From positions 966,675 to 1,030,674 of the forward strand of contig OZ240664.1 of NCBI GenBank assembly GCA_965198435.1: a stretch of 64,000 nt of DNA, given 5' to 3'. Position 1 is the first letter of the stretch. Each line of letters begins with the position of its first letter. Positions 2,542 through 23,762 of the stretch are shown here, piece after piece. This DNA is from an uncultured Pseudohongiella sp. (GTDB lineage Bacteria > Pseudomonadota > Gammaproteobacteria > Pseudomonadales > Pseudohongiellaceae). The notes under the pieces are model-generated. The model was not told the origin of the DNA. It did no database searches and worked only from the letters and a program-made list of their open reading frames with translations. Both the position numbers and the translations under genes were made by a program.

Positions 2542-2778
2542 AGGGCCTGTTCACACTAATTGAGTGGCCTCTGCTAGAGGGCATTTTTGCGTTCAGCAAG
2601 GCAGAAAGAGTGCCGTATATAAATATATAAACGATTGATAACGAAGCTGGGCGCAAAAAAGCGCCACTTGTCGTTGCTCGTCGCTCATTCGGAATCACCA
2701 AACTACGCCCCTCGCCGCGCCTCAATTGGCGCTTTTTTAGTCTCAACAGAGATCACTCCATTAGTGTGAACAGGCCCT
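2542..2778 (+). mobile_element. MITE-B copy B1 (237 bp)
   Basis: Terminal inverted repeats AGGGCCTGTTCACACTAAT / ATTAGTGTGAACAGGCCCT (19 bp perfect, about 36 bp imperfect). The left end abuts the ATG of the NRDE gene. Confidence 0.85.
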
Positions 2779-2902
2779 GGTTAAATGGTAGCGGTTAATT
2801 TCCTGCGGTTGAAGCAAACTTGATATACTGGACGGAAATTTTAAACCATTATTGAGCCTTTATCGTGTTCCTGGCACGCTCTTTAGCCCAGCCAATCAGT
2901 TG

Positions 2903-3703
2903 ATGCTGACCTATCCTCAATTTGATCCCGTCGCATTATCACTCGGACCAATAAACATTCATTGGTACGGGATCATGTATATCATCGCTTTTGGCGGTGC
3001 CTGGGTATTGGCATCCTATAGAGCCAAAAGAGTTGAAGAATCCTGGACCTCTGAACAAATCTCCGATCTCGTGTTCTATGGCGCTTTGGGAGCAGTGCTT
3101 GGAGGACGACTAGGATCAGTCTTTTTTTATAACTTTGGTCAGTTTCTCAACGATCCCCTGTGGTTGTTTCGTGTCTGGGAAGGTGGGATGTCTTTTCATG
3201 GGGGCTTTCTGGGTGTTCTGGTCGCACTCTACTTTTACACCTGCAGTATCAATAAAGATTACTGGCGCACAATTGATTTTATTGCGCCACTCGTACCGTT
3301 CGGTTTAGGTGCGGGTCGTTTAGGTAACTTTATAGGCGGAGAGCTTTGGGGTAAGCCAACCGAAGTAGCGTGGGGCATGGTTTTTCCCCATGTTGACCAA
3401 CTGCCGCGTCACCCTTCACAGTTGTATGAAGCTGCCTTTGAAGGTGTGGCTCTTTTTATCATTGTGTGGTGGTTTTCATCAAAGCCCAGACCAAGATTGG
3501 CAGTTTCAGGTGTGTTCGCTGTGGGTTATGGGTGTTTCAGATTTCTTATTGAATTCTTCCGCGAGCCGGATGGTCATATCGGCTATATCGCTTTCGATTG
3601 GTTAACTATGGGCCAGGTGCTTTCTGCACCGCTCATAATTGTGGGTGTAGTGTTTCTGCTCTTGGCTTATCAACAGCCGGATTCGGTTGCTGACACCCGG
3701 TAA
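2903..3703 (+). CDS. lgt: prolipoprotein diacylglyceryl transferase
   Basis: MLTYPQFDPVALSLGPINIHWYGIMY resembles the E. coli Lgt N-terminus. I chose the ATG at 2903 over the TTG at 2852 used by the ORF track. Confidence 0.9.
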   Translation: MLTYPQFDPVALSLGPINIHWYGIMYIIAFGGAWVLASYRAKRVEESWTSEQISDLVFYGALGAVLGGRLGSVFFYNFGQFLNDPLWLFRVWEGGMSFHGGFLGVLVALYFYTCSINKDYWRTIDFIAPLVPFGLGAGRLGNFIGGELWGKPTEVAWGMVFPHVDQLPRHPSQLYEAAFEGVALFIIVWWFSSKPRPRLAVSGVFAVGYGCFRFLIEFFREPDGHIGYIAFDWLTMGQVLSAPLIIVGVVFLLLAYQQPDSVADTR

Positions 3704-3731
3704 TACAAACAGTTAAATTCCATCAACTTTA

Positions 3732-3871
3732 GGAGCCTCTGATTAATGTTTGCGAGGCAGTTAGTGCAAAGCAAAAATCAGCGAAAAAGCGCAGTTTATA
3801 GGTCATAAATGCGCATTTTGAGCTGATTTTTAACGCAGCAATAACAACGTAGGTAATTAATCAGAGGTTCC
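3732..3871 (-). mobile_element. MITE-A copy A2 (140 bp, orientation R)
   Basis: GGAGCCTCTG..CAGAGGTTCC with TTTA/TTTA flanks. Lies between lgt and thyA, both on the plus strand. Confidence 0.9.
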
Positions 3872-3896
3872 TTTATTTAGTTTTAGATAGGGTTTC

Positions 3897-4748
3897 ATGT
3901 ATCAATATCTGGCTCTCTGTCAGCGCATAGTTAACGAAGGCGTCTGGGTTGAAAACGAACGAACTGGTAAGAAATGTCTGACAGTTGTTAATGCTGATCT
4001 GACTTATGACGTTGCCAATAATCAGTTTCCAATAATTACAACTCGCAAGAGCTATTGGAAAGCGGCTATAGCCGAACTATTGGGTTACTTGCGAGGCTAT
4101 GACAATGCAGCTGATTTTCGTGAACTTGGCACCAGATCCTGGGATGCTAACGCTAATCAAAATGAAGCCTGGTTAAAAAATCCTGTGCGTAAAGGTGATG
4201 ACGATATGGGCCGAGTCTATGGTGTGCAGGGAAGGAGTTGGCAAAAGCCCGATGGATCTACTATCGATCAGTTACAAAAAATTGTCGATAACCTGCAGCG
4301 TGGTATTGATGACCGCGGAGAAATATTAACATTTTATAACCCCGGGGAATTCGATCTAGGCTGCCTCAGGCCATGTATGCACACCCATAATTTCTCTTTG
4401 CTGGGAGACACGCTGTTCTTGACCAGTTATCAGCGCTCCTGTGATGTGCCTTTGGGACTGAACTTCAACCAAATACAGGTCTTTACATTGTTGGCTTTGA
4501 TGGCGCAGATTATCGGTAAAAAACCAGGCATGGCTTATCACAAGATCGTGAATGCCCACATCTACGAAGATCAACTGGCGTTAATGGAAGCCGTGCAACT
4601 CAAGCGTGAGCCTTTTGATCCACCGCAACTGCATATCAATCCAGATATAAAATCATTGGAAGACTTGGAGATCTGGGTAACTCTGGATGATTTTAGTGTT
4701 GAAGATTATCAACACCACGACCCTATCGCTTACCCGTTTTCTGTTTAA
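3897..4748 (+). CDS. thyA: thymidylate synthase
   Basis: 283 aa with conserved ThyA motifs (RSx[12 protein letters not shown]-type active-site Cys region). Confidence 0.95.
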
Positions 4749-4772
4749 TGTAATTATGAACAAAGAAGCAAT

Positions 4773-5330
4773 ATGAATCTATCGCTCATCTGTGCCATGG
4801 CTGAGAATCGAGTTATTGGCAAGAACAATAGCTTACCGTGGCATCTACCGCAGGACCTCAGGTACTTCAAAGCAACAACTATGGGGCATTGCATAATTAT
4901 GGGTCGAAAAACCTGGGAATCTATCGGCCGAGCCTTACCAGGTCGAACAAGTATCGTGGTCACGAATCAAGAAGACTATGAAGCGGAAGGCGCGAAAGTA
5001 GTCCACTCATTACCCGATGCTATTCGACTTGCTGAAAGCATCGCTATAATTGACGGCTCTGAGGAAGCATTCGTGATTGGTGGAGCAGGTTTGTATGCAG
5101 CAGCGATTCCTTATGCACAGCGCTTTCACTTAACCCGGATACATGCGGTGGTAGAGGGAGATACTCAGCTTCAAAAATTCGATGAGACTGAATGGACTGA
5201 ACTGAGCAATGAGTATTTCGAAAAAGATGAAGCCAATCCATTTGATTACAGTATCTGCGTACTTGAGCGTCGTCAGCAGCTACAACAGAGCTATAACAGT
5301 GGCGATTCAACCAGTGTTAACAGGCTCTAG
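4773..5330 (+). CDS. folA: dihydrofolate reductase
   Basis: MNLSLICAMAENRVIGKNNSLPWHLPQDLRYFK is a DHFR signature. The short C-terminal extension overlaps the argA stop. Confidence 0.9.
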   Translation: MNLSLICAMAENRVIGKNNSLPWHLPQDLRYFKATTMGHCIIMGRKTWESIGRALPGRTSIVVTNQEDYEAEGAKVVHSLPDAIRLAESIAIIDGSEEAFVIGGAGLYAAAIPYAQRFHLTRIHAVVEGDTQLQKFDETEWTELSNEYFEKDEANPFDYSICVLERRQQLQQSYNSGDSTSVNRL

Positions 5331-6661
5331 CCTAATGCCTTCAGCATTACCTTTGACTTACGCTGTAAGTTGTAAAGCTGCTGCCTGGCCTGCGGCAATG
5401 CATCCACGCTGGATTCCTGATACGCATTTTCCAGGAAGAAATGAGACGCCTCAGTCGTTAGACTGAACAGTCTAGTCAGGCCTTGTCCTTTGGCGGTTTG
5501 CTCCAGGCTTTCCAGCAGTCGTTTACCTAAACCCTTATTTCGATATTCTGGATGGATCGCAATACAGGCTATTTCGCCACTATCTTCGGCAGCGGGATAG
5601 AGTGCCGCGCAGGCGATTACAGTATCTTCCAGCTCTATCACCTGAAAATTTTCAATTTCAGTTTCCAATAACTCGCGTGAGCGTGTAACCAGGGTTCCGG
5701 ATTCTTCCAATGGTTTGATCAGCGCAAGAATTCCACCCACATCTTCTATATTGGCGCTACGCAGGTGATCAATGCTGTCGCTACTGAGTAAGCTTCCTCT
5801 GCCATCCCTGGTGAATAATTCCAGCAACATCGCACCGTTTTCCTTATAGCTAATCAGGTGAGTGCGATGCACGGCACTGGCATTGGCTTTGATGGCGGCA
5901 GCTAAAGCCTTGGCAGTGAACTGTGAATCAGAATCGTGACCAGCCTGCAGCAGATCTAAATAGTGTTGGGCAGTCTGTTCAGTTAGCGCGCTAATCAATG
6001 ATCCGTCTGTATCTGGCACTCCTGTAGTGGGGACCATCAAGATTAACTTATCTGCTTCCAGTGCTATCGCTGCTTCGGTAGCCACTTCGTCTGCGGAAAG
6101 ATTAAATACTTCACCGGTCACTGAGTAACCGAGGTTTGATAACAGCACTATATTACCCGCATCCAGTTGTTGATCGATGGCATCCTTCTGGATCTTTCTC
6201 ACTTTCCCGGTGTAATGAAAATCCGTTCCATCGCGTACGCCAACCGGTTTGCTCATTATAAAATTGCCCCGGCATACATTGATGTTGGAGCCATGCATAG
6301 GTGAATCTCGCAAACCTTTAGAAAACAGTGCTTCGAGTTTGGCACTTAATGCACCTGAAGTGGCAGTAATGGTTTGCATCGCGCTGGCTTCAGTAACACG
6401 CAAGTCCTGACTAAATTCTGTGAACAGGCCAGCCGCTTCCAATGCCACAGAAATTTGGGGGCGCGCACCATGCACAATGACCAGGCGGACTCCCAGGCTT
6501 TGCAACAGGCTGAGGTCAAAAACAATATTGGGAAGGTTATCATCAGCCATGGCTTCACCACTGAGAAATACCACAAAGGTTTTTCCACGATGTGCGTTGA
6601 TATAGGCCGTGGAAGCTCTAAACCAATCAACTATTTGCCTGTCCTGTTTATCGTTTGCCAT
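5327..6661 (-). CDS. argA: amino-acid N-acetyltransferase (N-acetylglutamate synthase)
   Basis: 444 aa with an amino-acid-kinase-like N-domain plus a GNAT C-domain, which is the typical ArgA architecture. Confidence 0.9.
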   Translation of the reverse strand: MANDKQDRQIVDWFRASTAYINAHRGKTFVVFLSGEAMADDNLPNIVFDLSLLQSLGVRLVIVHGARPQISVALEAAGLFTEFSQDLRVTEASAMQTITATSGALSAKLEALFSKGLRDSPMHGSNINVCRGNFIMSKPVGVRDGTDFHYTGKVRKIQKDAIDQQLDAGNIVLLSNLGYSVTGEVFNLSADEVATEAAIALEADKLILMVPTTGVPDTDGSLISALTEQTAQHYLDLLQAGHDSDSQFTAKALAAAIKANASAVHRTHLISYKENGAMLLELFTRDGRGSLLSSDSIDHLRSANIEDVGGILALIKPLEESGTLVTRSRELLETEIENFQVIELEDTVIACAALYPAAEDSGEIACIAIHPEYRNKGLGKRLLESLEQTAKGQGLTRLFSLTTEASHFFLENAYQESSVDALPQARQQLYNLQRKSKVMLKALG

Positions 6662-6677
6662 TTTTTAAATTACTTAA

Positions 6678-6817
6678 GGAACCTCTGATTAATTACCTAC
6701 GTTGTTATTGCTGCGTTAAAAATCAGCTCAAAATGCGCATTTATGACCTATAAACTGCGCTTTTTCGCTGATTTTTGCCTTGCACTAACTGCCTCGCAAA
6801 CATTAATCAGAGGCTCC
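6678..6817 (+). mobile_element. MITE-A copy A3 (140 bp, F)
   Basis: TTAA/TTAA flanks. Lies 16 bp upstream of the argA ATG and 9 bp downstream of the argE stop. Confidence 0.9.
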
Positions 6818-6826
6818 TTAATGCGC

Positions 6827-7981
6827 TTATCGTTCGATACAATTTCGAATGATTAGCTGTTTAACTATACCCACTGCTGGTTTGAGTATATCCAATGAAA
6901 GGTATTCATCCGGTTGATGAGCCTGCTCAATGTGGCCTGGGCCCATAATGATGGTGTCCATTCCAAGCTCTTGCAGATAAGGCCCTTCGGTTCCAAATGC
7001 CACACTGATGCCGCTATGGCCTGTCAGTTCTTCAGCAGTTTTCAGTAACTCACTATTCTCATTAGCAAAGAAAGCTGGCACACCGGTAAATTTCTTTACC
7101 AGTTCAAATTTCAATCCCAGCGGTTTTGCAATTGTTTCAACTCTTTTTTCGATATCGTTGCGCACTGTATCCAGATGCATGCCCGGCATCAACCTGATAT
7201 CAAACTGCAATTCGCAATGCCCACAGATTCGATTGGGGTTATCACCCCCATGAATACTACCCAGGTTAAGGGTAGGGTAGGGAATCTCAAATAGTGGGTT
7301 TTGGTACTTCTGTTTCAACTCTTCTCTGTAAATCATTAGCTCTGAAATGACTGTGTGCATTCCTTCCAATGCATTGCGACCCAGGCTCGGATCAGATGAA
7401 TGTCCACTCTGTCCTGATAATTTTATGGCATCCATCAAAATGCCTTTGTGGGTTTGTACCGGCTTAAGACCTGTAGGTTCACCTATTAGTGCTGCTCTGG
7501 CACGAGGCTTACCCATTTCTGCCAAAGTCTTTGCGCCCTCCATGGAAGTCTCTTCATCTGCGGTAGCAAGAATGATCAGTGGTTCTTTATAGTCTGCTTC
7601 ACCAATTTCTTTGATGGCTTCCATAACAATAGCAAAGAAGCCTTTCATGTCTGTTATGCCGAGGCCCAATAGCTTTCCATCTTGTTCCGTGACGCTAAAT
7701 GGATCAGTAGCCCAAAGATCATTATCGAAAGGCACAGTGTCAGTATGACCAGCCAGTACTAATCCACCCGGGCCACTACCCTTTGTTGCAATCAGATTTA
7801 CTTTTCCTTCAGAAGCGCAAGGGACGACCTCATTGCTAAAGCTCAGGGTCTCAAGTTTTTCGGCGAGGTGTTCGACGATCGACAAGTTACTCATGTCCAA
7901 TTCCGAATTGGTAGAACTCACGCTCGGAATCTGAACGACTTGTTGAAGTCCGCTTATTAAGTCAGGAAACGACTGTAACAT
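6827..7981 (-). CDS. argE: acetylornithine deacetylase
   Basis: 384-aa M20 peptidase-family protein with an ArgE-like sequence (LAGHTDTVP, GEPT). Confidence 0.85.
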   Translation of the reverse strand: MLQSFPDLISGLQQVVQIPSVSSTNSELDMSNLSIVEHLAEKLETLSFSNEVVPCASEGKVNLIATKGSGPGGLVLAGHTDTVPFDNDLWATDPFSVTEQDGKLLGLGITDMKGFFAIVMEAIKEIGEADYKEPLIILATADEETSMEGAKTLAEMGKPRARAALIGEPTGLKPVQTHKGILMDAIKLSGQSGHSSDPSLGRNALEGMHTVISELMIYREELKQKYQNPLFEIPYPTLNLGSIHGGDNPNRICGHCELQFDIRLMPGMHLDTVRNDIEKRVETIAKPLGLKFELVKKFTGVPAFFANENSELLKTAEELTGHSGISVAFGTEGPYLQELGMDTIIMGPGHIEQAHQPDEYLSLDILKPAVGIVKQLIIRNCIER

Positions 7982-8034
7982 TAGAAAAGCCTGTGAATTG
8001 AAAGAAGCAACAGGGAGCCTTTTAGTTGACCTAG

Positions 8035-8174
8035 GGAACCTCTGATTAATTACCTACGTTGTTATTGCTGCGTTAAAAATCAGCTCAAAATGCGCATTTA
8101 TGAGCTATAAACTGCGCTTTTTCGCTGATTTTTGCCTTGCACTAACTGCCTCGCAAACATTAATCAGAGGCTCC
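8035..8174 (+). mobile_element. MITE-A copy A4 (140 bp, F)
   Basis: Flanks are CTAG/CTGG (1 mismatch). Lies downstream of the phhB-like gene. Confidence 0.9.
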
Positions 8175-8207
8175 CTGGGAATCTGGTTGGTGCTGTCAGG
8201 AAAAATC

Positions 8208-8570
8208 CTAAGCGGGTGCAGACAGTTTTGCAATCATGTCGGTTTTGGCGGCCATAATAAAATCATTCACATGAAGGCCATTGATTCGATGCGTCCACCA
8301 GTAGACAGTGACCTTTCCCCATTCTGTGAGGATACCTGGGTGATGATCTTCTCGATCGGCAAGATTAGCGATCTTGTAAGTAAAATTGAAGGCATCTTTA
8401 AATTCCACAAAATGGAATTCACGAATCAGCTTTTCCACGCCGTCGTGAAACTCCCGTTTCCATGCAGGCACTGCTGGAAGAAGTTGATTAGCTTCTTCTT
8501 TTGTCACCACGGGAGCACCTAATCCACAGGGCTCGCAGCGACGCTTATACAATTGTTCTGCATTACTCAA
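8208..8570 (-). CDS. phhB: pterin-4a-carbinolamine dehydratase
   Basis: DHHPGILTEWGKVTVYWWTHRINGLHVNDFIMAAKTD is the PCD signature. The only in-frame start is the TTG at 8570, immediately after an in-frame TAA. Confidence 0.8.
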   Translation of the reverse strand: MSNAEQLYKRRCEPCGLGAPVVTKEEANQLLPAVPAWKREFHDGVEKLIREFHFVEFKDAFNFTYKIANLADREDHHPGILTEWGKVTVYWWTHRINGLHVNDFIMAAKTDMIAKLSAPA

Positions 8571-8574
8571 TTAA

Positions 8575-8714
8575 GGAACCTCTGATTAATTACCTACGTT
8601 GTTATTACTGTGTTAAAAATCAGCTCAAAATGCGCATTTATGCCCTATAAACTGCGCTTTTTCACTGGTTTTTGCCTTGCACTAACTGCCTTGCAAACAT
8701 TAATCAGAGGCTCC
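8575..8714 (+). mobile_element. MITE-A copy A5 (140 bp, F)
   Basis: TTAA/TTAA flanks. The element end is 4 bp upstream of the phhB TTG start. Confidence 0.9.
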
Positions 8715-8781
8715 TTAAGTTAAACGCCTCATATGTTTAGCTGTTCCATCCAGCTTGCAACTCGATACCAATTCATGATGT

Positions 8782-9930
8782 TTACAGAAACTCTTCGAGT
8801 AAGCTGTTGAGTACGCTATATCCATGCTTACTCGTCGTGATACGACCATCTTTTGACAGCAACAGATTTTTGGCAGACAGGTATTCTACCTGCTTTGCTA
8901 TCATGGAAAAAGTGACGCCAGTCCGCTTTTCAAAATCTTGTTGAGTAAAACCTTCTCGCAGTCTAAGTACATTCATTAAGTATTCAAATGGCCTTTCACG
9001 TTGTGATACTTCGGTGCGAGCTGCTTCTCTATTCAAACCGGCAGCCATGTAATGTTCTGGTTGTTTGGTCTTCCTGTTTCTAACAATGCCATTTACCATG
9101 GAATGTGAAAGTTTGCCATGCGCTCCTGCGCCCACACCCAAATAGTCACCAAAGCGCCAGTAATTGAGGTTGTGTTTAGAACTTTTCCTGTCTTTGCAGT
9201 AAGCCGATACTTCATAACGGCTATACCCAGCGTCATTCAAAATCTGAATGCCTTTTTCAATCATATCCCATGTCTCAGAATCGTCTGGTAATTTTGGCGG
9301 CCTACTATAGAAAGCAGTGTTCGGCTCAATAGTGAGCTGGTACCAACTGAGATGTGCCGCTCCCATCTCGGTCGCACTTCGTAAATCAGCCAGGGCTTCA
9401 TCTACACTTTGATCAGGCAATCCATACATCAAGTCCAGATTGAAGTTGTGAAAGCCTGCTCGCTCACAAAAACTAATGGCACTTACTGCTTCCTCACTTG
9501 TATGAATGCGACCCAAAGCGCGAAGCATCGAATCCTGGAAACTCTGAACACCAATAGAAAGGCGATTGACTCCGCTGCTTTTATAATCTTTGAATCGTTC
9601 AGCTTCGGCTGTACCAGGATTCACTTCTAAAGTAATTTCAATATCGTTCACGAACCCGAAGATATTTTCAGCTTGTTCCAAAATTCTGCTAATGGAATTG
9701 GCGGTAAATAAACTGGGTGTTCCACCGCCGATAAAAATGGATTGCAGAGATCTTAAGTCATTCGAATCCAATCTTTCTGATTCGAATTGCAAGTCGTTAG
9801 CCACTGCAGAAACATACTCCTCTTCCGGCAGAGTTGCGTTTGCTTGATGAGAATTAAAATCGCAATAAGGGCATTTGCGAACACACCAGGGAATGTGTAT
9901 GTATAGGCTTAGTGGTGGAAGTTCCAGCAT
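8782..9930 (-). CDS. hemW: radical SAM family heme chaperone HemW (HemN-like)
   Basis: 382 aa with the CxxxCxxC motif (CVRKCPYCDF) and YggW/HemW-like length. Confidence 0.85.
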   Translation of the reverse strand: MLELPPLSLYIHIPWCVRKCPYCDFNSHQANATLPEEEYVSAVANDLQFESERLDSNDLRSLQSIFIGGGTPSLFTANSISRILEQAENIFGFVNDIEITLEVNPGTAEAERFKDYKSSGVNRLSIGVQSFQDSMLRALGRIHTSEEAVSAISFCERAGFHNFNLDLMYGLPDQSVDEALADLRSATEMGAAHLSWYQLTIEPNTAFYSRPPKLPDDSETWDMIEKGIQILNDAGYSRYEVSAYCKDRKSSKHNLNYWRFGDYLGVGAGAHGKLSHSMVNGIVRNRKTKQPEHYMAAGLNREAARTEVSQRERPFEYLMNVLRLREGFTQQDFEKRTGVTFSMIAKQVEYLSAKNLLLSKDGRITTSKHGYSVLNSLLEEFL

Positions 9931-10511
9931 TCTAATAAGTTGCGTAAGGCCTGACCACGATGGCTGAGCTTATTCTTTATATCTGCAGGCAATTCGGCCG
10001 ATGTACAATCATGGGCAGGTACATAAAATAGAGGGTCATAACCAAAGCCATTCTCACCTTGTTCCTCAAATAAAATCCTTCCTTCCCAGGTGCCTTGGCA
10101 AATCAGTGGCATGGGGTCTTTGGCATGTCGAAGATAAACAATGACGCATTGGAACCTTGCTGTTCTATCTGGCTCCACAATTTGTTCTAACTCTGCTAAG
10201 AGCCTGTTGTTATTAGCCTGGTCTGCACTCGCTCCCTGCTGGCCAGCATAGCGGGCGGAGTAAATACCGGGCGCGCCATTCAGGGCATCTACTTCAATGC
10301 CGGAATCATCAGCGATACTTGGGAGTCCGGTAGCTTGGCAGGCATTGCGCGCTTTGATGAGTGCATTTTCTACGAAGCTGAGCCCGGTTTCTGGTACCTC
10401 GCTGACGCCTAACTTAGATTGTGGAACAAGTTCAACTTCTTCCACTGACAGTATATCCTGCAGCTCTCGCAGCTTTCCTTTATTGCCGCTGGCTAAAACA
10501 ACTTTTGTCAT
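9909..10511 (-). CDS. rdgB: dITP/XTP pyrophosphatase
   Basis: 200 aa. ASGNKGKLRE..FGYDP.F are Ham1/RdgB motifs. Confidence 0.9.
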   Translation of the reverse strand: MTKVVLASGNKGKLRELQDILSVEEVELVPQSKLGVSEVPETGLSFVENALIKARNACQATGLPSIADDSGIEVDALNGAPGIYSARYAGQQGASADQANNNRLLAELEQIVEPDRTARFQCVIVYLRHAKDPMPLICQGTWEGRILFEEQGENGFGYDPLFYVPAHDCTSAELPADIKNKLSHRGQALRNLLECWNFHH

Positions 10512-10516
10512 GCCGG

Positions 10517-14890: not shown

Positions 14891-15925
14891 ATGAACATTA
14901 CAGAACTTTTGGAATTCAGTGTGGAGCAGGGTGCATCGGACTTGCACATTACCGCTGGCATGCCTCCACTGATTCGCGTTGATGGTGATATTCGACGCAT
15001 CAACGTGCCTGAAATGGATCATAAGGAAGTGCACTCGTTGATTTACGAGGTTATAAACGATAAGCAGCGAAAGGACTATGAAGAATTCCTGGAGATCGAC
15101 TTCTCTTTAGAAGTTCCAAACCTGGCGCGATTTCGTGGTAATGCTTTTATTCAACATCGTGGTGCCGCAGCAGCATTTCGTACCATTCCATCGAAAGTGC
15201 TTTCAATGGAACAACTTGATATGGGCGACGTATTCCGAAAAATATCAGATATGCCTCGTGGCCTGATCTGCGTAACAGGACCAACGGGTTCGGGAAAGAG
15301 TACAACGCTTGCCGCCATGATAGATTATATTAATGACACCAGGTATGAGCACATTCTCACGATTGAGGATCCGATCGAATTTGTACACCATAGTAAAAAG
15401 TGTCTGGTGAATCAGCGTGAAGTGTATAGAGATACACATGGCTTTAATGAGGCACTGCGTTCAGCACTTCGTGAAGACCCAGATATCATTCTCGTTGGTG
15501 AGCTTCGTGACCTGGAGACGATTCGTCTTGCGCTAACGGCTGCAGAAACCGGCCACCTGGTTTTGGCCACATTACATACCACTTCAGCTGCCGAGAGTAT
15601 TGACCGTGTAATCGATGTATTTCCAGCCGCAGAAAAAAACGTGGTACGGTCCATGTTGTCGGAATCACTGCAAGCGGTAATTTCACAAACGCTAATGAAG
15701 AAACCCGGCGGTGGTCGAGTCGCAGCCCGTGAAATTATGATTGGTACGGCTGCGATTCGAAATCTGATTCGAGAAGACAAAGTGGCGCAGATGTATTCAG
15801 CTATTCAGACTGGTGCATCAGTGGGCATGCAGACTTTGGACCAGTGTTTGAAGGATTTATTGATGAAGGGCCTTATTACGAGGGAAGATGCAAGGTCCAA
15901 GGCCAAGATGCCCGAAAACTTCTAG
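14891..15925 (+). CDS. pilT: type IV pilus twitching motility ATPase PilT
   Basis: 344 aa with Walker A GPTGSGKST and the PilT signature. Divergent from yggS, as in Pseudomonas. Confidence 0.9.
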   Translation: MNITELLEFSVEQGASDLHITAGMPPLIRVDGDIRRINVPEMDHKEVHSLIYEVINDKQRKDYEEFLEIDFSLEVPNLARFRGNAFIQHRGAAAAFRTIPSKVLSMEQLDMGDVFRKISDMPRGLICVTGPTGSGKSTTLAAMIDYINDTRYEHILTIEDPIEFVHHSKKCLVNQREVYRDTHGFNEALRSALREDPDIILVGELRDLETIRLALTAAETGHLVLATLHTTSAAESIDRVIDVFPAAEKNVVRSMLSESLQAVISQTLMKKPGGGRVAAREIMIGTAAIRNLIREDKVAQMYSAIQTGASVGMQTLDQCLKDLLMKGLITREDARSKAKMPENF

Positions 15926-16185
15926 GGCCTGTTCACACTAATTAAGTGGTCTTTGCTAGAGAGCATTTTTGCGCTCAGCAAGGCAGAAAGAGTGCCGTAT
16001 ATAACTATATATAAACTATTGATAACGAAGCTGGGCGCAAAGATGCGCCTAGCCCTTCGGGGGTTGTGGCTAAAAAAGCGCCACTTGTCGTTGCTCGTCG
16101 CTCATTTGGAATCACCAAACTACGCTCCTCAATTGGCGCTTTTGTAGTCACAACAGAGATCACTTAATGAGTGTGAACAGGCCCT
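15924..16185 (+). mobile_element. MITE-B copy B2 (262 bp)
   Basis: Same termini as B1, with TA on both flanks. The pilT TAG stop overlaps the left junction. Confidence 0.85.
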
Positions 16186-16189
16186 AATT

Positions 16190-17439
16190 TGTAGAAGTTT
16201 AGACCTGATCTGACAGTTACCCGTTTATCTGTGGTGTCTCTCCGGTGAAGTCCAGGTTACACACTTTTCCATCCAGATTTGTTTTCCACCGATGAGTGTC
16301 TCCATCGGCGTTCTCCCGCAGCACATTTTGCTTTGGTGAGTGCGTTGAGTAGTGTATTTAGCCAACCAGTGGTCAAGGTCCTTTTGTAAGTCCTCCAACT
16401 GATCGTAAATCTTTTTACGTAAAGCAATCCTGTAAAACTCATCCTTCACCGTCTTAATGGAACCGCTCGCAGATGCCATGGGTTTGTGGTGACTTGACCT
16501 TGGTCCTGGTGTGCTCAATCTCGTTGAGCGATAAAGACAGCGGATCATCATGCTGTTCAGCTTTGCCACAATACGCCGTCCCACGATCCGTCAAAATACG
16601 CAACACAGGAAGCTCTTGCTCTTCGTAGAACGGCAAGACACGATCATTGCATTAAGAGTAAATCCACTGCGTTCATCGGTCCTTTTTTTGGGGGGTATGA
16701 CGCTTCACCTGAGCCACGTTGGTAGTTGCTACGCGTATCGACGTAGGTTGCAGGTTTGCGGATATAACCAGCCTATGCTTTTGAACGTGCCTGCTAAACG
16801 TGCCCACATAGTCCGTATCCTGAGAACCCAGATAGCCCGGGTGGGCTGTTTCAATCTCGCTTGCGGCCACATCGTCTTGTTGTTTGCGTTCCATCGCCGC
16901 CACCTGAGACTCGGTGAGAATAGGGCCCTCTTGAGCCACCAAGGCGTCCAGCACCTTGAGACGGTCTTTGAAGCACGCCAAGTGATGGCGTAACCAAGAT
17001 ACCCCGAATACCACTGAGTGAGACAAAGGTGCCTCGCTTACGCCGTTCATTGCTGGTGCGCGTTTGTCCATGAGCAGGTTCTTCAACCGCGTACTTAACC
17101 ACCGATTCAACGGCAGGATCAATCCGATTTTTCAGATTGGGCTGGCGACGATTGCTGTCAAACAGAGTATCAACGCCGCCTTCCTCTGTGGCTGACTTGT
17201 CACGATAAAACGTATCGCGTGACAGCCCCATCATTTTGCAGGCTTTGGATACATTGCCCGGCTCTTCGGCCAGATTGGGCAGGCCGATTTTGTGTTTAAT
17301 AACTTTTTCCGTAGATATGGATCATGAGAGTGACCTCTTTGTTTTGATTTAGGGTGTGGTAACCACATCAAAACGGGCAACTTTCTTGCGGGCATTCCTT
17401 TCGAACTACCAACTGTTAGATCAGGTCTAAACTTCTACA
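16190..17439 (-). mobile_element. IS481-family insertion sequence, degenerate (1250 bp)
   Basis: 29-bp inverted repeats at 16190-16218 (TGTAGAAGTTTAGACCTGATCTGACAGTT) and 17411-17439, matching 28 of 29. Flanking direct repeat CCTAATT at 16183-16189 and 17440-17446. Confidence 0.85.
16225..17325 (-). pseudogene. IS481-family DDE transposase, multiple frameshifts
   Basis: Transposase-like peptides are scattered over three frames: MMGLSRDTFYR, ETAHPGYLGSQDT, LRILTDRGTAYCGK..HTRTKVKSPQTHGICERFH, and MCCGRTPMETL. The first frameshift is within 5 codons of the ATG at 17325. Confidence 0.8.
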
Positions 17440-17676
17440 CCTAATTAGAGGGTTTTAGGCTTGCAGTGCTTCGTTGTATCCTCGCTCGCTCCCGGGTACC
17501 TCGCGCTGCATCGTCTGCATTCTCTCTATAACTTCGCTGACGTTTTTGGGCATGTCGCACTCAATTCCTGGAATACTTTTACTCTAGGATAAGGCTTCTC
17601 AGTTCGGTCTTGCGTTGCATTGCCTAAAATTCTTCGACTCTTTCATTTCAGGTCAGGTCATATACGTTAAGTCCAG

Positions 17677-17827
17677 GGAACCTCTGATTAATTACCTATT
17701 AATTACCTACGTTGTTATTGCAGCGTTAAAAATCATCTCAAAATGCGCATTTATGACCTGTAAACTGCGCTTTTTCGCTGATTTTTGCCTTGCACTAACT
17801 GCCTCGCAAACATTAATCAGAGGCTCC
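17677..17827 (+). mobile_element. MITE-A copy A7 (151 bp, F)
   Basis: Carries one extra subterminal 11-mer (ATTAATTACCT x2). Flanks CCAG/TTAA do not match. Contains the last 3 codons and the TGA stop of ruvX. Confidence 0.9.
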
Positions 17828-18266
17828 TTAAATCGTTGAACCAGTTTCGCAAGATAATTTGAGCTGCAATATCGTCGATGGCAGATTTTTTGTTGATGTT
17901 ACCTTCTTCAATAGCTTGCTCTATAGCTGCTTTCGAAGACAAACGTTCATCCATTCCGAAACTTGGCATGTTAAAGCGACCATTTAGACGATTCCCAAAC
18001 TTTACTGCTCTAGGCAGAAGCTCACTGTCAGAGCCATCCAGATTATAGGGCAGGCCAACCACGAATACGTCCGGCCGCCAATCCTCGATCAATTTTTCAA
18101 TCTGATCCCAATCGGGGATGCCGTCTTTTGCCTTTAATACACATATGGCCTGCGCTGTTCCCGTGATGCTTTGGCCAAATGCTACACCAATTCGCTGAGT
18201 CCCATAATCGAATGCCAGCGCAGCTATAGGTTTCGATCTATCGTTTGGAAAATTTTGCAGGCTCAT
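17817..18266 (-). CDS. ruvX: Holliday junction resolvase-like protein RuvX/YqgF
   Basis: 149 aa with the YqgF family N-terminus (ALAFDYGTQRIGVA). The C-terminal RSL-stop is encoded by MITE A7. Confidence 0.85.
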   Translation of the reverse strand: MSLQNFPNDRSKPIAALAFDYGTQRIGVAFGQSITGTAQAICVLKAKDGIPDWDQIEKLIEDWRPDVFVVGLPYNLDGSDSELLPRAVKFGNRLNGRFNMPSFGMDERLSSKAAIEQAIEEGNINKKSAIDDIAAQIILRNWFNDLRSL

Positions 18267-18290
18267 GCAGCGGACATTAGGTGTTAGATG

Positions 18291-18881
18291 CTAGGAATGT
18301 CCCGCCTCAGGCGATAGCTGGTCAAGATGGATACCCAATAGTGCGGCGGCATCTTTGGATTTTTCCGCATAGTCGTGAGAAAACAGCAGCTCTGTATTAG
18401 TCGGCACCGTCAGCCAGGCATTTTCAGTAATCTCTCGCTCCAGTTGCCCGGCCTTCCAGCCAGCGCAGCCTAGTGCTACCAAATAATTTGGTGGACCATG
18501 TCCCTGTGCGATATCTTGCAGAATAGTTTTTGACGTACAGACTGAAATATTATCTGTAATGACAATGGATGATTCCCACTGTGCTCCGGCGTCATGAATG
18601 ATGAAACCTTTATCCCGTTCTACCGGCCCGCCTGCGAGAACGTGTTGATGTTGCAGTTCCTGCTCGCTAATTGAACACTGGATATCCAATTCGTCGAAAA
18701 TATCAGTGACCTTTGCTTGCAGGGGCTTGTTGATCACAATGCCGACAGCCCCCTCTTGGTTGTGTCGCCACAAGTAGGTTACTGTATTGGCGAAATAGGG
18801 GTCTATGAGCTGTGGCATGGCTACTAGAAACTGGTTTTCTAAATAGCTTTCAAAATAGCTTTCAAATTCAAGTTTAGGCAT
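18291..18881 (-). CDS. yqgE: YqgE/AlgH family protein
   Basis: FLVAMPQLIDPYFANTVTYLWRHNQEGAVGIVINKPL is the UPF0301 signature. Confidence 0.85.
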   Translation of the reverse strand: MPKLEFESYFESYLENQFLVAMPQLIDPYFANTVTYLWRHNQEGAVGIVINKPLQAKVTDIFDELDIQCSISEQELQHQHVLAGGPVERDKGFIIHDAGAQWESSIVITDNISVCTSKTILQDIAQGHGPPNYLVALGCAGWKAGQLEREITENAWLTVPTNTELLFSHDYAEKSKDAAALLGIHLDQLSPEAGHS

Positions 18882-18895
18882 GGCGGGCTACTGAA

Positions 18896-19771
18896 TTAGT
18901 AGCTGGTGAGCTCATTCCCCTCGTGAAACCGGAATGTTCGAATGATTTCAAGTATATCAACTTCTGCCCGCATTTCATCAGGAAAGGGTTCAAAAGGAGC
19001 TGCCATATTGATGATGTTTACTGCTGCTTGATCTAAAACTGTTTGCCCGGATGACTGCAGAATTCGAACCTCTTCGATTCTACCTGTAGGCCTTAGTGCT
19101 ACAAGCATCCTCACATTGCCATAAATCTGCTGTTGGCGCGCTGCTGCGGGATAGTTTACATTACCTACAGCTTCGATGCGCCGCCGCCAGTTGTCCAAAT
19201 ACTGTGCGTCCTGACCTTTTCTTGTGGACACCGAGGAGATTGTATACTTCCTGGGTCTGCGCGCGTAGGCCTGGCGCTGGCGATCAAGTTGAACCTGCAA
19301 GCTGGCAATAGCTAGACTTAGATTATCTGGACTAACTTCATCAATGGCAGGTTGTTGATTTTCTGGTTCAGGTTTTTCCAGTTGTTGTCTTACATCTGTG
19401 TGATTGCTAATCGCAGTGACGACAGTAACGTCCCGGGCTGACTGTTCGTTAACTATTTGCGGTGCTTGCGGAATCGGAGAAACTTCTTGAATCTGGTCTG
19501 CGTTGAAATCTGACTCGAAAGGTGTCGCAGGAGCAGCGGCTTGATCAAGAGTACCGCTGCCTGTTTGATTTTCCTGTGCAAGAAAATCTGGATTGTCCGG
19601 TGCAATGTTACTTCTATATTGTGCCATTGTAATCTCAAGGGCTGGCTCACTATTTAACTCCTCAAGATAAGTAAAGCCCAATCCGAAAACAATGATAGCG
19701 TGGACGCATGCTGACAAAAAGACAGTAAAGCCGAATCGTTCTTTCGATAACTCTTCGTCTTCGATAGTCAT
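18896..19771 (-). CDS. TonB-family energy transducer
   Basis: N-terminal TM segment and a C-terminal TonB_C-like region (YPAAARQQQIYGNVRMLVAL). Its position between yqgE and gshB matches Pseudomonas tonB3. Confidence 0.7.
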   Translation of the reverse strand: MTIEDEELSKERFGFTVFLSACVHAIIVFGLGFTYLEELNSEPALEITMAQYRSNIAPDNPDFLAQENQTGSGTLDQAAAPATPFESDFNADQIQEVSPIPQAPQIVNEQSARDVTVVTAISNHTDVRQQLEKPEPENQQPAIDEVSPDNLSLAIASLQVQLDRQRQAYARRPRKYTISSVSTRKGQDAQYLDNWRRRIEAVGNVNYPAAARQQQIYGNVRMLVALRPTGRIEEVRILQSSGQTVLDQAAVNIINMAAPFEPFPDEMRAEVDILEIIRTFRFHEGNELTSY

Positions 19772-19794
19772 AGGGGTTCCTGCTGCATTGCTGC

Positions 19795-20751
19795 TTAGGC
19801 TTTTTGGGCAAGCCTTTCCTGGATACTTTCCATGAGGTCGCCTGCAATGTCAGTTCCTTTAGCGGCGTCGATTTCTCTAACGCAGGTCGGGCTTGTCACA
19901 TTGATCTCGGTTAGGTAGTCACCTATTATGTCCAGTCCGACGAAGAGTAGCCCCTTGGCCTTTAAGGTGGCGCTGACCTGACCACATATCCAACGATCTC
20001 TATCGCTCAATTCCTGTGCAATGCCTTTACCCCCAGCCGCTAGATTGCCCCGGCTTTCACCTGATGCGGGTACACGGGCGAGAGCATAATCAACTGGCTT
20101 CCCGTCGATTAGTAAAATACGTTTATCACCAGCGCTGATATCCGGCAGGTATTTCTGCGCCATGATCTGGCGCTTACCGCTTAAGGTCAGCGTTTCCAGT
20201 ATCACGCTGAGATTTGGATCATCTGGTTTTACACGAAAAATCGATGTTCCACCCATGCCATCCAGTGGTTTGTAAATCACATCTGCATGGGTGTCATGAA
20301 ATCCTTTGAGAATGGATTCTGAACTGGAAACCAGAAATTCAGGGCAACATTGCGGAAACTGCGTAGCGAACATCTTTTCATTGCAATCACGTAAGCTTTG
20401 TGGATCATTGATGATTAATGTACCGGACTTTTGTGCTTCCTCAAGCAAATATGTCGAATAGATAAAATCCATATCGAATGGCGGATCTTTCCGCATAAGA
20501 ATCACATCTAAATCGCCCAGGGCCTGATCTGATTCTTCGCCAAATCCAAACCAGTTTTCCGGGTTATCCTTTACTTGTAACTCACGCATCCTGGCTCTGC
20601 TGACACCCTGATCAGAATACAGATCGGTTTGCAGCATATACTGGATTTTCCAGCTACGTTTCTGAGCAGCCAGCAGCATCGCGAGTGTGGTGTCCTTATA
20701 AACAGCAATGGACTCAATCGGGTCCATCACTACTCCCAGTGTTACAGTCAT
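19795..20751 (-). CDS. gshB: glutathione synthetase
   Basis: 318-aa ATP-grasp protein with prokaryotic GshB motifs. Confidence 0.9.
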   Translation of the reverse strand: MTVTLGVVMDPIESIAVYKDTTLAMLLAAQKRSWKIQYMLQTDLYSDQGVSRARMRELQVKDNPENWFGFGEESDQALGDLDVILMRKDPPFDMDFIYSTYLLEEAQKSGTLIINDPQSLRDCNEKMFATQFPQCCPEFLVSSSESILKGFHDTHADVIYKPLDGMGGTSIFRVKPDDPNLSVILETLTLSGKRQIMAQKYLPDISAGDKRILLIDGKPVDYALARVPASGESRGNLAAGGKGIAQELSDRDRWICGQVSATLKAKGLLFVGLDIIGDYLTEINVTSPTCVREIDAAKGTDIAGDLMESIQERLAQKA

Positions 20752-20926
20752 TTGGTTTCTCTCGACAAATTGCAGAAGAACAGGATTTTCATTGGTTGAT
20801 GCGCGGGAAAATCATATCCCACTTTCTTCAATGAAGCGAAAATGAAGCACAGTGATCTTAGTCCGTATTCATGGAATCAGTCTATAATGGGGCTTTCTAA
20901 GCGATATACCTGATTCGGATTATCCA

Positions 20927-21436
20927 GTGCGATCGATCGGCTATACCTGGGGCATTGGCGGGGTACTGCTTTTGCTTGTTTTTGCAATATGTCGGTTGGC
21001 TCCGATGGCTTTTGCCCTGCAAGAGGTAAACCTTTCTTTTTTGCACTGGACGTCATTGATTTTCAGTGTTTGTTATATGGCCTATGCCGAGGGTTATAAA
21101 GGCTTTCATCTGGGGTTTGCGCCAAGAGTTGTATCCCGCGCAACTTACCTGTTTCAGAATCCAAGGCTGAGTCACATGTTATTGGCACCATTGTTTTGTA
21201 TGGGCTATTTCCATACAACCAGAAAGCGTCAGTTGCTATCGATTGGGCTCACCATAATGATTGTGTGTTTTATCGCCATCGCTCGACAACTACCGCAGCC
21301 TTGGCGTGGCATACTTGATGCCGGGGTAGTTGTTGGCCTGGGAATCGGCATCTCGTCTATTGGGTACTTTCTGATGCGTTCCGTATTCGACCCCGCCTAT
21401 AATCCTGTGTCAGCAGAACTGCCTGTAGATCGTTAG
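20927..21436 (+). CDS. hypothetical polytopic membrane protein
   Basis: 169 aa with 4-5 hydrophobic segments and a GTG start. It is the first gene of the glycosyltransferase island. Confidence 0.45.
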   Translation: MRSIGYTWGIGGVLLLLVFAICRLAPMAFALQEVNLSFLHWTSLIFSVCYMAYAEGYKGFHLGFAPRVVSRATYLFQNPRLSHMLLAPLFCMGYFHTTRKRQLLSIGLTIMIVCFIAIARQLPQPWRGILDAGVVVGLGIGISSIGYFLMRSVFDPAYNPVSAELPVDR

Positions 21437-21445
21437 ACATACATC

Positions 21446-22357
21446 ATGAACTCCGAGCAGATACAACTGAATACTTTTGCGATTGTTGTAACCTACAACC
21501 CCGACATTACCGCGTTGTTAAAGCTATTGGGCCAGCTAAACAAGGAAACGGACTTTATCGTAATTGACAACGGATCGCCTGAAATCGGGAACATTGCTGA
21601 ATCAGTTACTGTCTATGAACGATGCACCGAGCTTCTAAGACTTAGTGAAAACCGGGGACTCGCAAGTGCACTCAATATTGGTATCGAGAAAGCTCTGGAG
21701 CGATATGCTGATTACATATTTCTATTAGATCAAGATAGCAGCTTGTGTGATTTGTTTGTCGAAAGGATGGTCGGTGCATACATGGATGCTGAGCGATACT
21801 CTAGTAAGGGGATTGCAGCAGTTGGTCCACGCATCATTAACCCACAAACTATGCGACAAACGCCGTTTAAATTGTTCAATCATTTTGTCCTGCGTTCTGA
21901 TCAACATTATGCGCAGACTCAATCTCATTTTCTCGCTGATTTTCTTATCACTTCAGGCACATTGCTTGTGGCTAAACATGTGCGTGAAATAGGCATGATG
22001 AAAGAAAGCTATTTCATCGATAACGTTGATCTGGAGTGGTGCTTTCGGGCCAAATCTATGGCTTACGAGTTAGTGGGCACCGATGCAGCAGTTCTCTATC
22101 ATGCCATTGGCGAGCGTAGCATGAATCCATTAGTGCGTGCTGGGATAATGGCACAGCACAATCCATCCAGAACCTATTATTCCAGCAGAAATCGCACGCA
22201 CTTATACAGTCTGAGCTACTCGCCATTAGGCTGGAAAATAAGAGATCGAATTCGATTTTTTATTAAAGCGAGCTGGCTCATCCTTTCTTCGCAGGATCGT
22301 AAACAATATTGGCATAACATTCGTTCCGGGATACGTGATGCCAAATCGCTTAGTTAG
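21446..22357 (+). CDS. family 2 glycosyltransferase (rhamnosyltransferase-like)
   Basis: 303 aa with the GT2 N-terminal pattern (FAIVVTYNPD, NGS) and an LLDQDS DxD-like motif. Confidence 0.75.
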   Translation: MNSEQIQLNTFAIVVTYNPDITALLKLLGQLNKETDFIVIDNGSPEIGNIAESVTVYERCTELLRLSENRGLASALNIGIEKALERYADYIFLLDQDSSLCDLFVERMVGAYMDAERYSSKGIAAVGPRIINPQTMRQTPFKLFNHFVLRSDQHYAQTQSHFLADFLITSGTLLVAKHVREIGMMKESYFIDNVDLEWCFRAKSMAYELVGTDAAVLYHAIGERSMNPLVRAGIMAQHNPSRTYYSSRNRTHLYSLSYSPLGWKIRDRIRFFIKASWLILSSQDRKQYWHNIRSGIRDAKSLS

Positions 22358-22544
22358 GGAGCCTCTGATTAATGTTTGCGAGGCAGTTAGTGCAAGGCAA
22401 AAATCAGCGAAAAAGCGCAGTTTATAGGCCATAAATGCGCATTTTGAGCGGATTTTTAACGCAGCAATAACAACGTAGGTAATTATTAATAGGTAATTAA
22501 TAGGTAATTAATAGGTAATTAATAGGTAATTAATCAGAGGTTCC
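22358..22544 (-). mobile_element. MITE-A copy A8 (187 bp, R) with expanded subterminal repeat
   Basis: Starts directly after the TAG stop of the upstream GT. Holds a 58-bp array of the AGGTAATTAAT subterminal 11-mer. Confidence 0.9.
22477..22534. repeat. tandem array of the MITE-A subterminal 11-mer
   Basis: AGGTAATTATTAAT (14 nt) followed by 4 x AGGTAATTAAT. Canonical copies have a single unit. Confidence 0.9.
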
Positions 22545-22555
22545 TTTAGTTAAAT

Positions 22556-23488
22556 ATGACAACATCAACCCGTGTGGCAATCTTGCTCTCTACTTACAAT
22601 GGAGAAAAATTCCTTTGCGAACAACTGGATTCATTGTTAACGCAAAGCCACGACAATTTCATTTTGGTTGCGAGAGATGATGGATCGTCAGACGAAACCT
22701 GGAATATTCTGCAGGACTACCAGGGCAGATACTCGCAGAAGATTTACCTTGCGGAAGGTGACATAACTAATCTCGGTGCCAGAGATAGTTTTGCCTATCT
22801 GATAGACTATGCCTTGCGTTACAAGCAAAAACTAGAACTGGAAGATGCCTATATGTTGTTTTGTGATCAGGATGATGTATGGTTTCCGAACAAGATCGAA
22901 ACGCAACTCAACGCCATGTTGAAATGCGAAGCTGGCAACCCTGGGGCCCCGGTGCTCGTTTACAGTGATCTGGAAGTCGTATCAGAGTCTTTGAAAGTAG
23001 TCGCACCTTCGCTGGCACGTTACCAGGGATTGGAAACCCACCGAAATAGTTTCAATCAAATGGTTATCAGCAACCTGGTCACCGGTTGTACAGCCATGCT
23101 TAATGAGGCATTAGCCAGCAAGTGCCTGCCTGTTTCGAAGAATGCCATTATGCATGACTGGTGGCTGGCGCTGGTGGCATCAGCATTTGGTAAGGTGGTC
23201 TATCTTGATCAAGCGCTCGTCCACTATCGTCAACATGGCAGCAATGCGATAGGAGCGAAGGAGCACAAGCAGGCTGTTGTCACTCGACCTGGATTCTGGA
23301 GCAGGCTGTCTAGTCTGCAACCTGATGACCATCTGTTGGAGGTGGCGGTGCAGGCTAGAGATTTCGCCGATCAGTTCGGTGCTTATCTGTCGGAACATCA
23401 GCGTGCTGGTTTGAAGTTAGCAGGTAAGATGGAGGCCACAACAGGAATTTTGCAGCGCATTTATTACAGAAGAGCACGGCGCTACTAG
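22556..23488 (+). CDS. family 2 glycosyltransferase
   Basis: 310 aa. VAILLSTYNGEKFL..ARDDGSSD..FCDQDDVW is the classic GT2 pattern. Confidence 0.75.
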   Translation: MTTSTRVAILLSTYNGEKFLCEQLDSLLTQSHDNFILVARDDGSSDETWNILQDYQGRYSQKIYLAEGDITNLGARDSFAYLIDYALRYKQKLELEDAYMLFCDQDDVWFPNKIETQLNAMLKCEAGNPGAPVLVYSDLEVVSESLKVVAPSLARYQGLETHRNSFNQMVISNLVTGCTAMLNEALASKCLPVSKNAIMHDWWLALVASAFGKVVYLDQALVHYRQHGSNAIGAKEHKQAVVTRPGFWSRLSSLQPDDHLLEVAVQARDFADQFGAYLSEHQRAGLKLAGKMEATTGILQRIYYRRARRY

Positions 23489-23762
23489 GGCCTGTTCACA
23501 CTAATTGAGTGGCCTCTGCTAGAGAGGATTTTTGCGTCCAGTGAGGCAGAAAGAGTGCCTTATATAAATATATATAAACGATTGATAACAAAGCTGGGCG
23601 CAAAAATGACCCTGGCCCTTCGGGTTGCGGCTAAAGCGGCTAAAAAAACGCCACTTGTCGTTGCTCGTCGCTCATTTGGAACAACCAAACTACGTTCCTC
23701 GCGCCTCAATTCGCGCTTTTTTAGTCACAACAGAGGCCACTCAATTAGTGTGAACAGGCCCT
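23487..23762 (+). mobile_element. MITE-B copy B3 (276 bp)
   Basis: Same termini as B1 and B2. Overlaps the TAG stop of the upstream GT and ends 3 bp from the stop of the 1406-aa gene. Confidence 0.85.

Follow-up and report, generated by a model that had tools for sequence, protein, structure and literature searches.

Short non-coding repeats that are moved by the transposases of insertion sequences (ISs) have been described in several lineages, and they provide the background for MITE-B, a transposable element of the miniature inverted-repeat kind (MITE) of about 265 bp that occurs three times in a 64,000-nucleotide stretch of DNA from an uncultured Pseudohongiella sp. (contig OZ240664.1, positions 966,675 to 1,030,674; hereafter the window). 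In eukaryotes, Tourist MITEs and PIF-Harbinger elements use transposases related to the bacterial IS5 family and generate 3-bp TAA/TTA duplications; their likeness to MITE-B lies in the IS5-related transposase and the short T/A-rich duplications, with no sequence relationship. In Pseudomonas syringae, MITEPsy1 is reportedly an IS5-family MITE that prefers YTAR and duplicates all 4 bp of it. A second MITE of the Pseudohongiella genome, MITE-A, shares the YTAR preference of MITE-B but carries a 4-bp duplication, as in the IS5 group, in contrast to the central TA, as in the IS427 group.

RUP of Streptococcus pneumoniae resembles MITE-B in being non-coding, in its copy number of about 100, in having terminal inverted repeats (TIRs) that match those of an IS, and in its TA target (PMC2229807). 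It also often inserts into ISs (PMC2229807), as MITE-B does in the larger copies of its partner IS and in an IS1016-like copy, whereas it differs in its length of 107 bp (against ~265 bp) and its IS630-family transposase (against IS5/IS427) and in that MITE-B has two-module internal hairpins. The Correia/NEMIS elements of Neisseria are likewise TA-flanked, bounded by TIRs, able to form long hairpins if transcribed and located near gene ends, but they measure ~107-155 bp, are unrelated in sequence and contain an IHF site (PMC2229807). On the side of the transposase, the partner IS of MITE-B resembles the IS427-group elements IS1248, ISPpa2 and ISPaes1 of Paracoccus in its size, in overlapping open reading frames (ORFs) that have a slippery A-run and DUF4096 and DDE domains, in the shortness of its TIRs and in a duplication of 2 bp (PMC3281130). 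MITE-B differs from such ISs in lacking a transposase and in having the outer 17-20 bp alone in common.

Our analysis indicates, with a probability that we put at about 0.85, that MITE-B is a ~265-bp non-autonomous transposon mobilised in trans by an IS427-group DDE transposase of the IS5 family, with YTAR as target and TA as the duplicated dinucleotide. It is a true MITE of an ordinary kind, whose hairpin architecture is conserved unusually well. An earlier note, made from the letters of the window alone, had described a mobile repeat that duplicates TA and had tentatively linked it to IS630/Tc1-mariner-type transposases, with a known structured RNA as the alternative; the MITE, the TA duplication and the distinction from known RNAs stand, and the IS630/Tc1-mariner link does not. 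The explanation is a simple one for about 100 intergenic blocks of 265 bp, for many stop codons and for several seemingly complete ISs that are nested composites.

All three window copies lie on the same strand at the places given in the earlier note, whose limits included one surplus flank base on either side, and they can be aligned over their full length with a mean column identity of 86%. Each copy ends in GGGCCTGTTCACAC termini, and the element limits are taken as GGGCC..GGCCC. The terminus GGGCCTGTTCACACT occurs exactly six times in the window, as the three left and three right ends, against a chance expectation of 0.1. Perfect TIRs of 19 bp, previously ascribed to all copies, are found in B1, while those of B3 are longer, with 30 perfect bases, and those of B2 depart from perfection once, at position 17. 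Also present are the conserved blocks, a centre that varies and GC stems with A or T runs, together with the flanks first noted, TA on the left of every copy and TG (B1), TA (B2) and TG (B3) on the right. B1 diverges by 3.0% from the family consensus. The parts of the three copies are as follows.

2541-2542, left TA of B1; its right counterpart, 2778-2779, now reads TG
2543-2777, plus strand, MITE-B copy B1, 235 bp, without the ~40-bp central hairpin segment
2543-2573 and 2747-2777, TIRs of B1
2614-2633, AT-rich core of B1
2683-2703, conserved right-module core of B1
2717-2738, terminator-like GCGCC-TCAATT-GGCGC-T6 of B1
15923-15924 and 16185-16186, left and right TA of B2
15925-16184, plus strand, MITE-B copy B2, 260 bp
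15925-15955 and 16154-16184, TIRs of B2
15956-15979 and 16030-16052, left-module arms of B2
15996-16016, AT-rich core of B2
16053-16062, central hairpin of B2
16063-16083 and 16134-16154, right-module arms of B2
16100-16120, conserved core of B2
23486-23487, left TA of B3; its right counterpart, 23762-23763, now reads TG
23488-23761, plus strand, MITE-B copy B3, 274 bp
within 23488-23518 and 23731-23761, TIRs of B3, 30 bp perfect
23559-23580, AT-rich core of B3
23616-23624, central hairpin of B3
23670-23690, conserved core of B3

Cataloguing across the source genome, a single contig of 3,515,178 bp (C1; 47.9% G+C) that includes the window, was proposed in the earlier note and extended these three copies to a dispersed family. 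With at most 2 mismatches, 274 terminus matches were obtained, a few of them chance matches within an IS1595-subfamily coding region. Pairing of plus and minus termini 100-700 bp apart gave 102 copies with a modal and median length of 265 bp, and a BLAST search with the consensus gave 133 loci, 98 of which reach at least 200 bp, for a total of 29.9 kb or 0.85% of the genome. The family is old: the copies have a median pairwise identity of 90% and a nearest-neighbour identity of 95%, and only one pair reaches 98%. No transposase ORF is present, and five of the six consensus frames contain stops; the remaining frame is open over 88 codons of the 265-bp consensus, for which the chance probability is ~9% over six frames, and six copies lie mostly within crude ORFs. 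MITE-B combines a size below ~500 bp, absence of coding capacity, TIRs, a target duplication with an empty site and dispersed copies.

Among 41 relatives and all species representatives, MITE-B itself was found in the source genome only; scans of the species-representative genomes with the 24-nucleotide terminus and with an IS5 protein fragment gave no match, while related elements are present in congeners and metagenomes. A literature search for the terminus string returned no published description. By that search and the scan of species representatives, MITE-B is a new element of a familiar type. At four further loci, listed below, nothing but the two terminal repeats is present, as mini-palindromes of 34-62 bp that retain YTA/CA flanks; these are extreme internal-deletion derivatives of MITE-B.

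C1:2888669-2888703, mini-palindrome
C1:2947154-2947187, mini-palindrome
C1:1397897-~1397960, mini-palindrome
C1:2285614-~2285673, mini-palindrome

A search for ISs with the ends of MITE-B, as proposed in the earlier note, led to the candidate partner: among ISs, GGGCCTGTTCACAC ends are confined to IS427-group elements of the IS5 family, which are present as degenerate copies in the source genome and as an intact one in a congener. Every element with MITE-B termini that encodes a protein of its own encodes one of IS5 type. The copies in the source genome have TA flanks and include the following.

C1:169057-169909, IS5/IS427-like copy
C1:47793-48796, IS5/IS427-like copy
C1:2093353-2095478, IS5/IS427-like copy

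They share their outer 17-20 bp with MITE-B, and all of those examined contain stops, frameshifts or truncations; a length of 914 bp was reconstructed from flanks. In each of the larger copies, the same internal site is occupied by MITE-B, either alone or with an IS1016-like element nested in it. All three larger copies carry MITE-B at this position, and therefore the interrupted IS was itself copied later; the copy at C1:2093353-2095478 is a triple nesting of an IS1016-like element in MITE-B in an IS427-like element.

The intact relative, in congener G001 (L063:1482-2335), is 854 bp long, is flanked by TA on both sides and has an A8 slippery run as well as an ORFA with DUF4096 (1.3e-25) and an ORFB with a DDE domain (DDE_Tnp_1, 6.4e-13); when fused, ORFAB reaches 249.8 bits against NF033580, for which the cut-off is 110. 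It has 16-17 terminal bases in common with MITE-B. Captured IS427-group ISs measure 832-865 bp and have 2-bp direct repeats (PMC3281130, Table 2), and on size, frameshift and 2-bp direct repeat, on which the group assignment rests, the G001 element is classed as an IS427-group IS. The partner IS and MITE-B have the same 2-bp duplication length, IS copies being flanked TA/TA. Congeners G001, G045 and G064 each contain this type of IS together with ~265-bp MITEs that have the same termini and YTA..TAR flanks. MITE-B is therefore best assigned to an IS427-group (IS5-family) partner, and a transposase of this group most likely was its mover. Because no intact cognate transposase is present in the genome and median pairwise identity is 90%, the family is probably immobile there now.

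The earlier note had derived a TA duplication from three copies, and the flanks of the whole family uphold it. Reading outward, position -1 is A at 247 of the 274 termini, position -2 is T at 214 and C at 50, and position -3 is a pyrimidine at 265. The logo is sharp, and the target is therefore YTAR. Among the 102 paired copies, the flanks read TA/TA in 58, CA/TA in 21, TA/TG in 14 and CA/TG in 1, and 35 copies carry a non-TA flank (CA on the left or TG on the right). Direct repeats of 2-9 bp were sought with the boundary shifted by anything from -4 to +4; none longer than 2 bp was detected, TA being the only one. One clean paralogous empty site was found, where the MITE-B copy at C1:3376170-3376435 interrupts an IS1016-like element: the uninterrupted paralogues read CACTTATC-TA-GGACAG, and the filled site reads ..C-TA-MITE-TA-G... 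Comparison of empty sites in relatives, also proposed earlier, was less productive, as the 30 congeners searched are at least 20% diverged and gave no clean site; B1 alone allowed a usable, weak comparison, in which its flanks, minus the element and one dinucleotide, align without gaps to the orthologous spacer of congener G003.

The deviations at position -2 are almost wholly T-to-C, with CTA|GG changed to CCA at 37 of 156 termini and TTA|GG to TCA at 9 of 86. The 4-bp duplications of MITE-A, a family far commoner than MITE-B, allow the same change to be followed (~700 termini and 608 paired copies, many in the window; measured from one outer end of the search motif to the other, the pairs mostly span 132 bp, and the whole element spans ~140 bp). 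Identical 4-bp YTAR target-site duplications (TSDs) are kept in 383 of its copies. Where the two TSDs disagree, YTAR is preserved in one of them, and the TSD that adjoins GG has YCAG: the commonest single-base differences are CTAG to CCAG (11 left, 7 right) and TTAG to TCAG (10 left, 12 right), eight further pairs are changed on both sides, and forward ends have CCAG instead of CTAG at 27/71 (38%). TAAGG contexts are altered less often, with one right-side class (equivalent to CTAAGG to CCAAGG) seen nine times. The MITE-A mismatches therefore demonstrate independently of MITE-B that YTAGG-to-YCAGG is a genome-wide post-insertion hotspot, with CTAGG to CCAGG commonest, and the right TG flanks of B1 (2778-2779) and B3 (23762-23763) are attributable to this hotspot and not to a different target. 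The specificity of the hotspot resembles that of very-short-patch repair. CTAG is depleted genome-wide (observed/expected 0.43) and C5-methyltransferases are present; Vsr very-short-patch repair was considered as the source of the CA/TG flanks and rejected: its context specificity fits, yet no PF03852 match occurs in the genome. Such a hotspot in a genome with no detected Vsr may interest specialists more than MITE-B itself.

MITE-B copies are overwhelmingly intergenic, as judged by crude longest-ORF gene calls, which also underlie the following statistic. At 26 of 86 adjacent gene 3' ends, the stop codon is formed by the TA and the first G of the element, whereas 8.9% would be expected if neutral YTAR sites were hit at random (p = 4e-8). 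Insertion into a TAA or TAG stop regenerates TAG, and such sites are therefore harmless. No orientation bias was detected, either relative to the gene reading into MITE-B (12 same, 14 opposite) or relative to co-directional neighbours (19 vs 33).

We propose the following model. An IS427-group transposase would recognise the GGGCCTGTTCACACT termini common to the IS and MITE-B, and would have inserted MITE-B at YTAR with duplication of the central TA. A later T-to-C change at YTAGG would have turned some flanks into CA (left) or TG (right), and copies would have built up in intergenic DNA, the TA that they hit being strikingly often that of a stop codon, for which insertion restores TAG.

The predicted fold of B2 is far stronger than those of shuffled controls, with z = -10.4 and -9.1 on the two strands. 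In a cross-species alignment of 23 rows, with copies of the source genome and congeners G001, G045 and G038, the predicted consensus fold consists of a 27-pair terminal stem, a left hairpin module, a small GCCCTTCGGG hairpin and a right hairpin module, and 95.7% of cells are paired. Double-sided changes occur at 38 of the 90 predicted pairs, against 7-11 in controls in which the partner was slid by 1-3 columns. MITE-B is thus modelled as two inverted, paralogous hairpin modules around a central hairpin, in a predicted fold that compensatory changes maintain from species to species. Congener copies have a left module that is an inverted paralogue of their right module. In eight copies of the source genome the right module, or only its loop, is flipped between its own inverted arms, an inversion that suggests that the internal inverted repeats recombined or allowed template switching. 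These copies include the following.

C1:721271-721533, flipped copy
C1:172768-173031, flipped copy
C1:148464-148728, flipped copy
C1:2203244-2203508, flipped copy
C1:2481837-2482101, flipped copy

A metagenome scan with the 21-nucleotide core of the right module matched 14 contigs, all with elements of the same size and plan, most of which have GGGCCTGTTAACAC-type ends, TA flanks and freely covarying arms; invariance of the core in these matches follows from the search itself, whereas conservation of the neighbouring bases does not. A conserved core of ~50 nucleotides, GCGTTGCTCGTCGCTCATTTGGAATCACCAAAC..CTCCTCGCGCC, lies in a stem with covarying arms and recurs in congeners, in a further family within the order and in the 14 metagenome contigs. 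At metagenome locus L098 the same two-module interior stands between unrelated terminal repeats, GAACCCATCTCAATAATCC, and at L099 between strongly diverged ones, GGGGGCGTTAACAATC, which suggests module exchange between MITE families. Rfam gave nothing at gathering thresholds over the whole window, and sub-threshold matches at chance level only on B2, in agreement with the earlier expectation that MITE-B would match no known structured RNA family. The covarying architecture, common to related MITEs across species and metagenomes, may be of more interest to specialists than MITE-B.

Other movers and other modes of insertion have to be set against the proposal of an IS427-group transposase. Movement by an IS630/Tc1-mariner-type transposase, whose target is TA, often inside CTAG, would explain the TA flanks in their YTAR/CTAG context and the TA duplication, and RUP, the best-documented bacterial TA-type MITE, is tied to IS630-Spn1 (PMC2229807). 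Across the whole genome, however, the best match to IS630-family transposases (NF033545) scores 35.9 bits against a cut-off of 100, the matches being weak and confined to the N-terminal helix-turn-helix; those beside B2 are part of a dead IS481-family element with unrelated ends, and the MITE-B termini agree instead with IS427-group elements in the source genome and congeners. TA flanks alone are no sign of IS630/mariner, as IS427-group IS5 elements duplicate TA as well, and we regard this attribution as most improbable. Derivation by internal deletion from an IS1595-family element is suggested by the 983-bp sequence at C1:1155473-1156455, in which an intact 218-amino-acid ORF for an IS1595 transposase (PF12762, 5.9e-28; NF033547, 151.7 bits) lies between perfect MITE-B ends, an arrangement repeated in two diverged relatives (C1:2925899 and C1:2093761). 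Yet nine other copies, at 98-99% identity, match the inner ~720 bp alone (positions ~177-900), end in TIRs of a different sequence, GGGGCTGTACCAGATAAC, and are flanked by AT-rich duplications of 8 bp, among them TAGTTTTG, TTGTATTC and TATATTTA. With TIRs of its own (GGGGCTGTACC) and an 8-bp TSD, the IS is ruled out as a parent, and the derivation is scarcely conceivable; the 983-bp element is a MITE-B copy whose TATATA core has received an IS1016-group IS.

A different reading of the flanks is that an element ending in A...T enters bluntly between Y and R, with no duplication, the T/C and A/G being target bases. The flank combinations (TA/TA 58, CA/TA 21, TA/TG 14, CA/TG 1) are compatible with independent choices of Y and R, flank state shows no significant link to copy age as measured by divergence (p = 0.38), and two diverged empty sites (C1:2620446, and B1 against G003) read CG where the filled site reads TA..TG, so that G stands in place of TG. 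Against blunt insertion, IS427-group DDE transposases produce 2-bp duplications (PMC3281130), the 4-bp TSDs of MITE-A place the YTAGG T-to-C change after insertion at context-dependent rates that equal those of the MITE-B flanks, and congener copies are nearly all TA/TA; we consider blunt insertion very doubtful. Several observations nevertheless weigh against the reading that we prefer, mobilisation in trans by an IS427-group transposase with TA duplication. The CG empty sites fit the blunt model one mismatch better, and where both flanks read TA, duplication and the blunt entry of an element that ends in A...T are formally indistinguishable. The congeners, all diverged by at least 20%, yielded no clean orthologous empty site, and a metagenome scan for the predicted empty site of B3 gave no match. 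The sharing between MITE-B and the IS is confined to the 17-20 terminal bases, with nothing internal, and it is consequently termini and co-occurrence, and not a deletion series, that support the link. The source genome has no intact cognate transposase, all its IS copies being degenerate, and mobilisation by this group is read from sequence comparison. The stop-codon statistic, finally, depends on the crude longest-ORF gene calls.

The conservation of the interior raises the possibility that copies were co-opted by the host as structured RNAs or terminators at gene 3' ends, which would explain both the conservation and the stop-codon position. The strong fold, the 38 compensatory pairs across species, the 26 copies exactly on stop codons and the core in metagenomic elements, including L098 with its unrelated termini, would agree with such a role, as would the GCGCC-loop-GGCGC-T run that 42 of 89 copies contain and that resembles a terminator. 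However, the orientation counts given above show no bias, B2 and the congener versions are without terminator-like sites, palindrome arms are able to co-evolve by templated repair in the absence of selection, and stop codons are simply neutral YTAR sites. Co-option is thus unlikely, and a terminator function for MITE-B was rejected on the missing orientation bias. A tentative and on the whole improbable idea is that the two-module interior is a selected cargo and not filler; MITEs would then carry a protein-binding site or a motif of structured RNA or DNA.

The IS1016-group IS of the IS1595 family that entered MITE-B is young, with ten copies of ~718 bp at 98-100% identity, TIRs of GGGGCTGTACCAGATAAC and 8-bp AT-rich TSDs. 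Three of these ten lie within the TATATA cores of MITE-B copies, forming composites that mimic an autonomous parent, and a diverged IS1016-like subfamily (~60% amino-acid identity) is likewise inserted in MITE-B cores. The reverse nesting also occurs, at C1:3376170-3376435, where MITE-B lies within an IS1016-like copy. A transposase gene between MITE ends may accordingly be a passenger and not a parent. The loci include the following.

C1:965352-966227, IS1016-group IS or composite, just left of the window
C1:1155473-1156455, IS1016-group IS or composite
C1:3495104-3495849, IS1016-group IS or composite

In the window, a terminus with 2 mismatches, CTA|GAGCCTGTTAACACT, lies at 5313-5329 on the minus strand (terminus 5313-5327) with the usual CTA flank, and its TA and G form the stop of the ORF at 5327-6661. 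A partner repeat was sought nearby and none was found; the sequence may be the remnant of a solo terminus or may match by chance.

Each window copy abuts a gene. B1 is unusual in that its left TA directly adjoins the ATG (2540-2538, minus strand) of the gene at 1767-2540, whose start codon is conserved in six congeners. The MITE terminus now occupies the sequence upstream of this gene, with AGG 5 nucleotides before the ATG, and the gene must therefore have its ribosome-binding site and promoter within B1 or on the far side of it. The left TA of B3 and its first G form the TAG stop of a GT2 glycosyltransferase gene (22556-23488), and its right TG (23762-23763) stands 3 bp before the stop of a convergent gene (23766-27986). 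In B2, the left TA and first G are the TAG stop of a pilT-family gene (14891-15925), the congener orthologues of which can be aligned right up to the B2 junction. At the right edge of B2, a dead IS481-family element is inserted at ~16190-17439, with a duplication on either side.

16183-16189 and ~17440-17446, 7-bp CCTAATT duplication of the IS481-family element

This duplication takes in the last CC of B2 and its TA, and the IS481-family element therefore arrived after B2.

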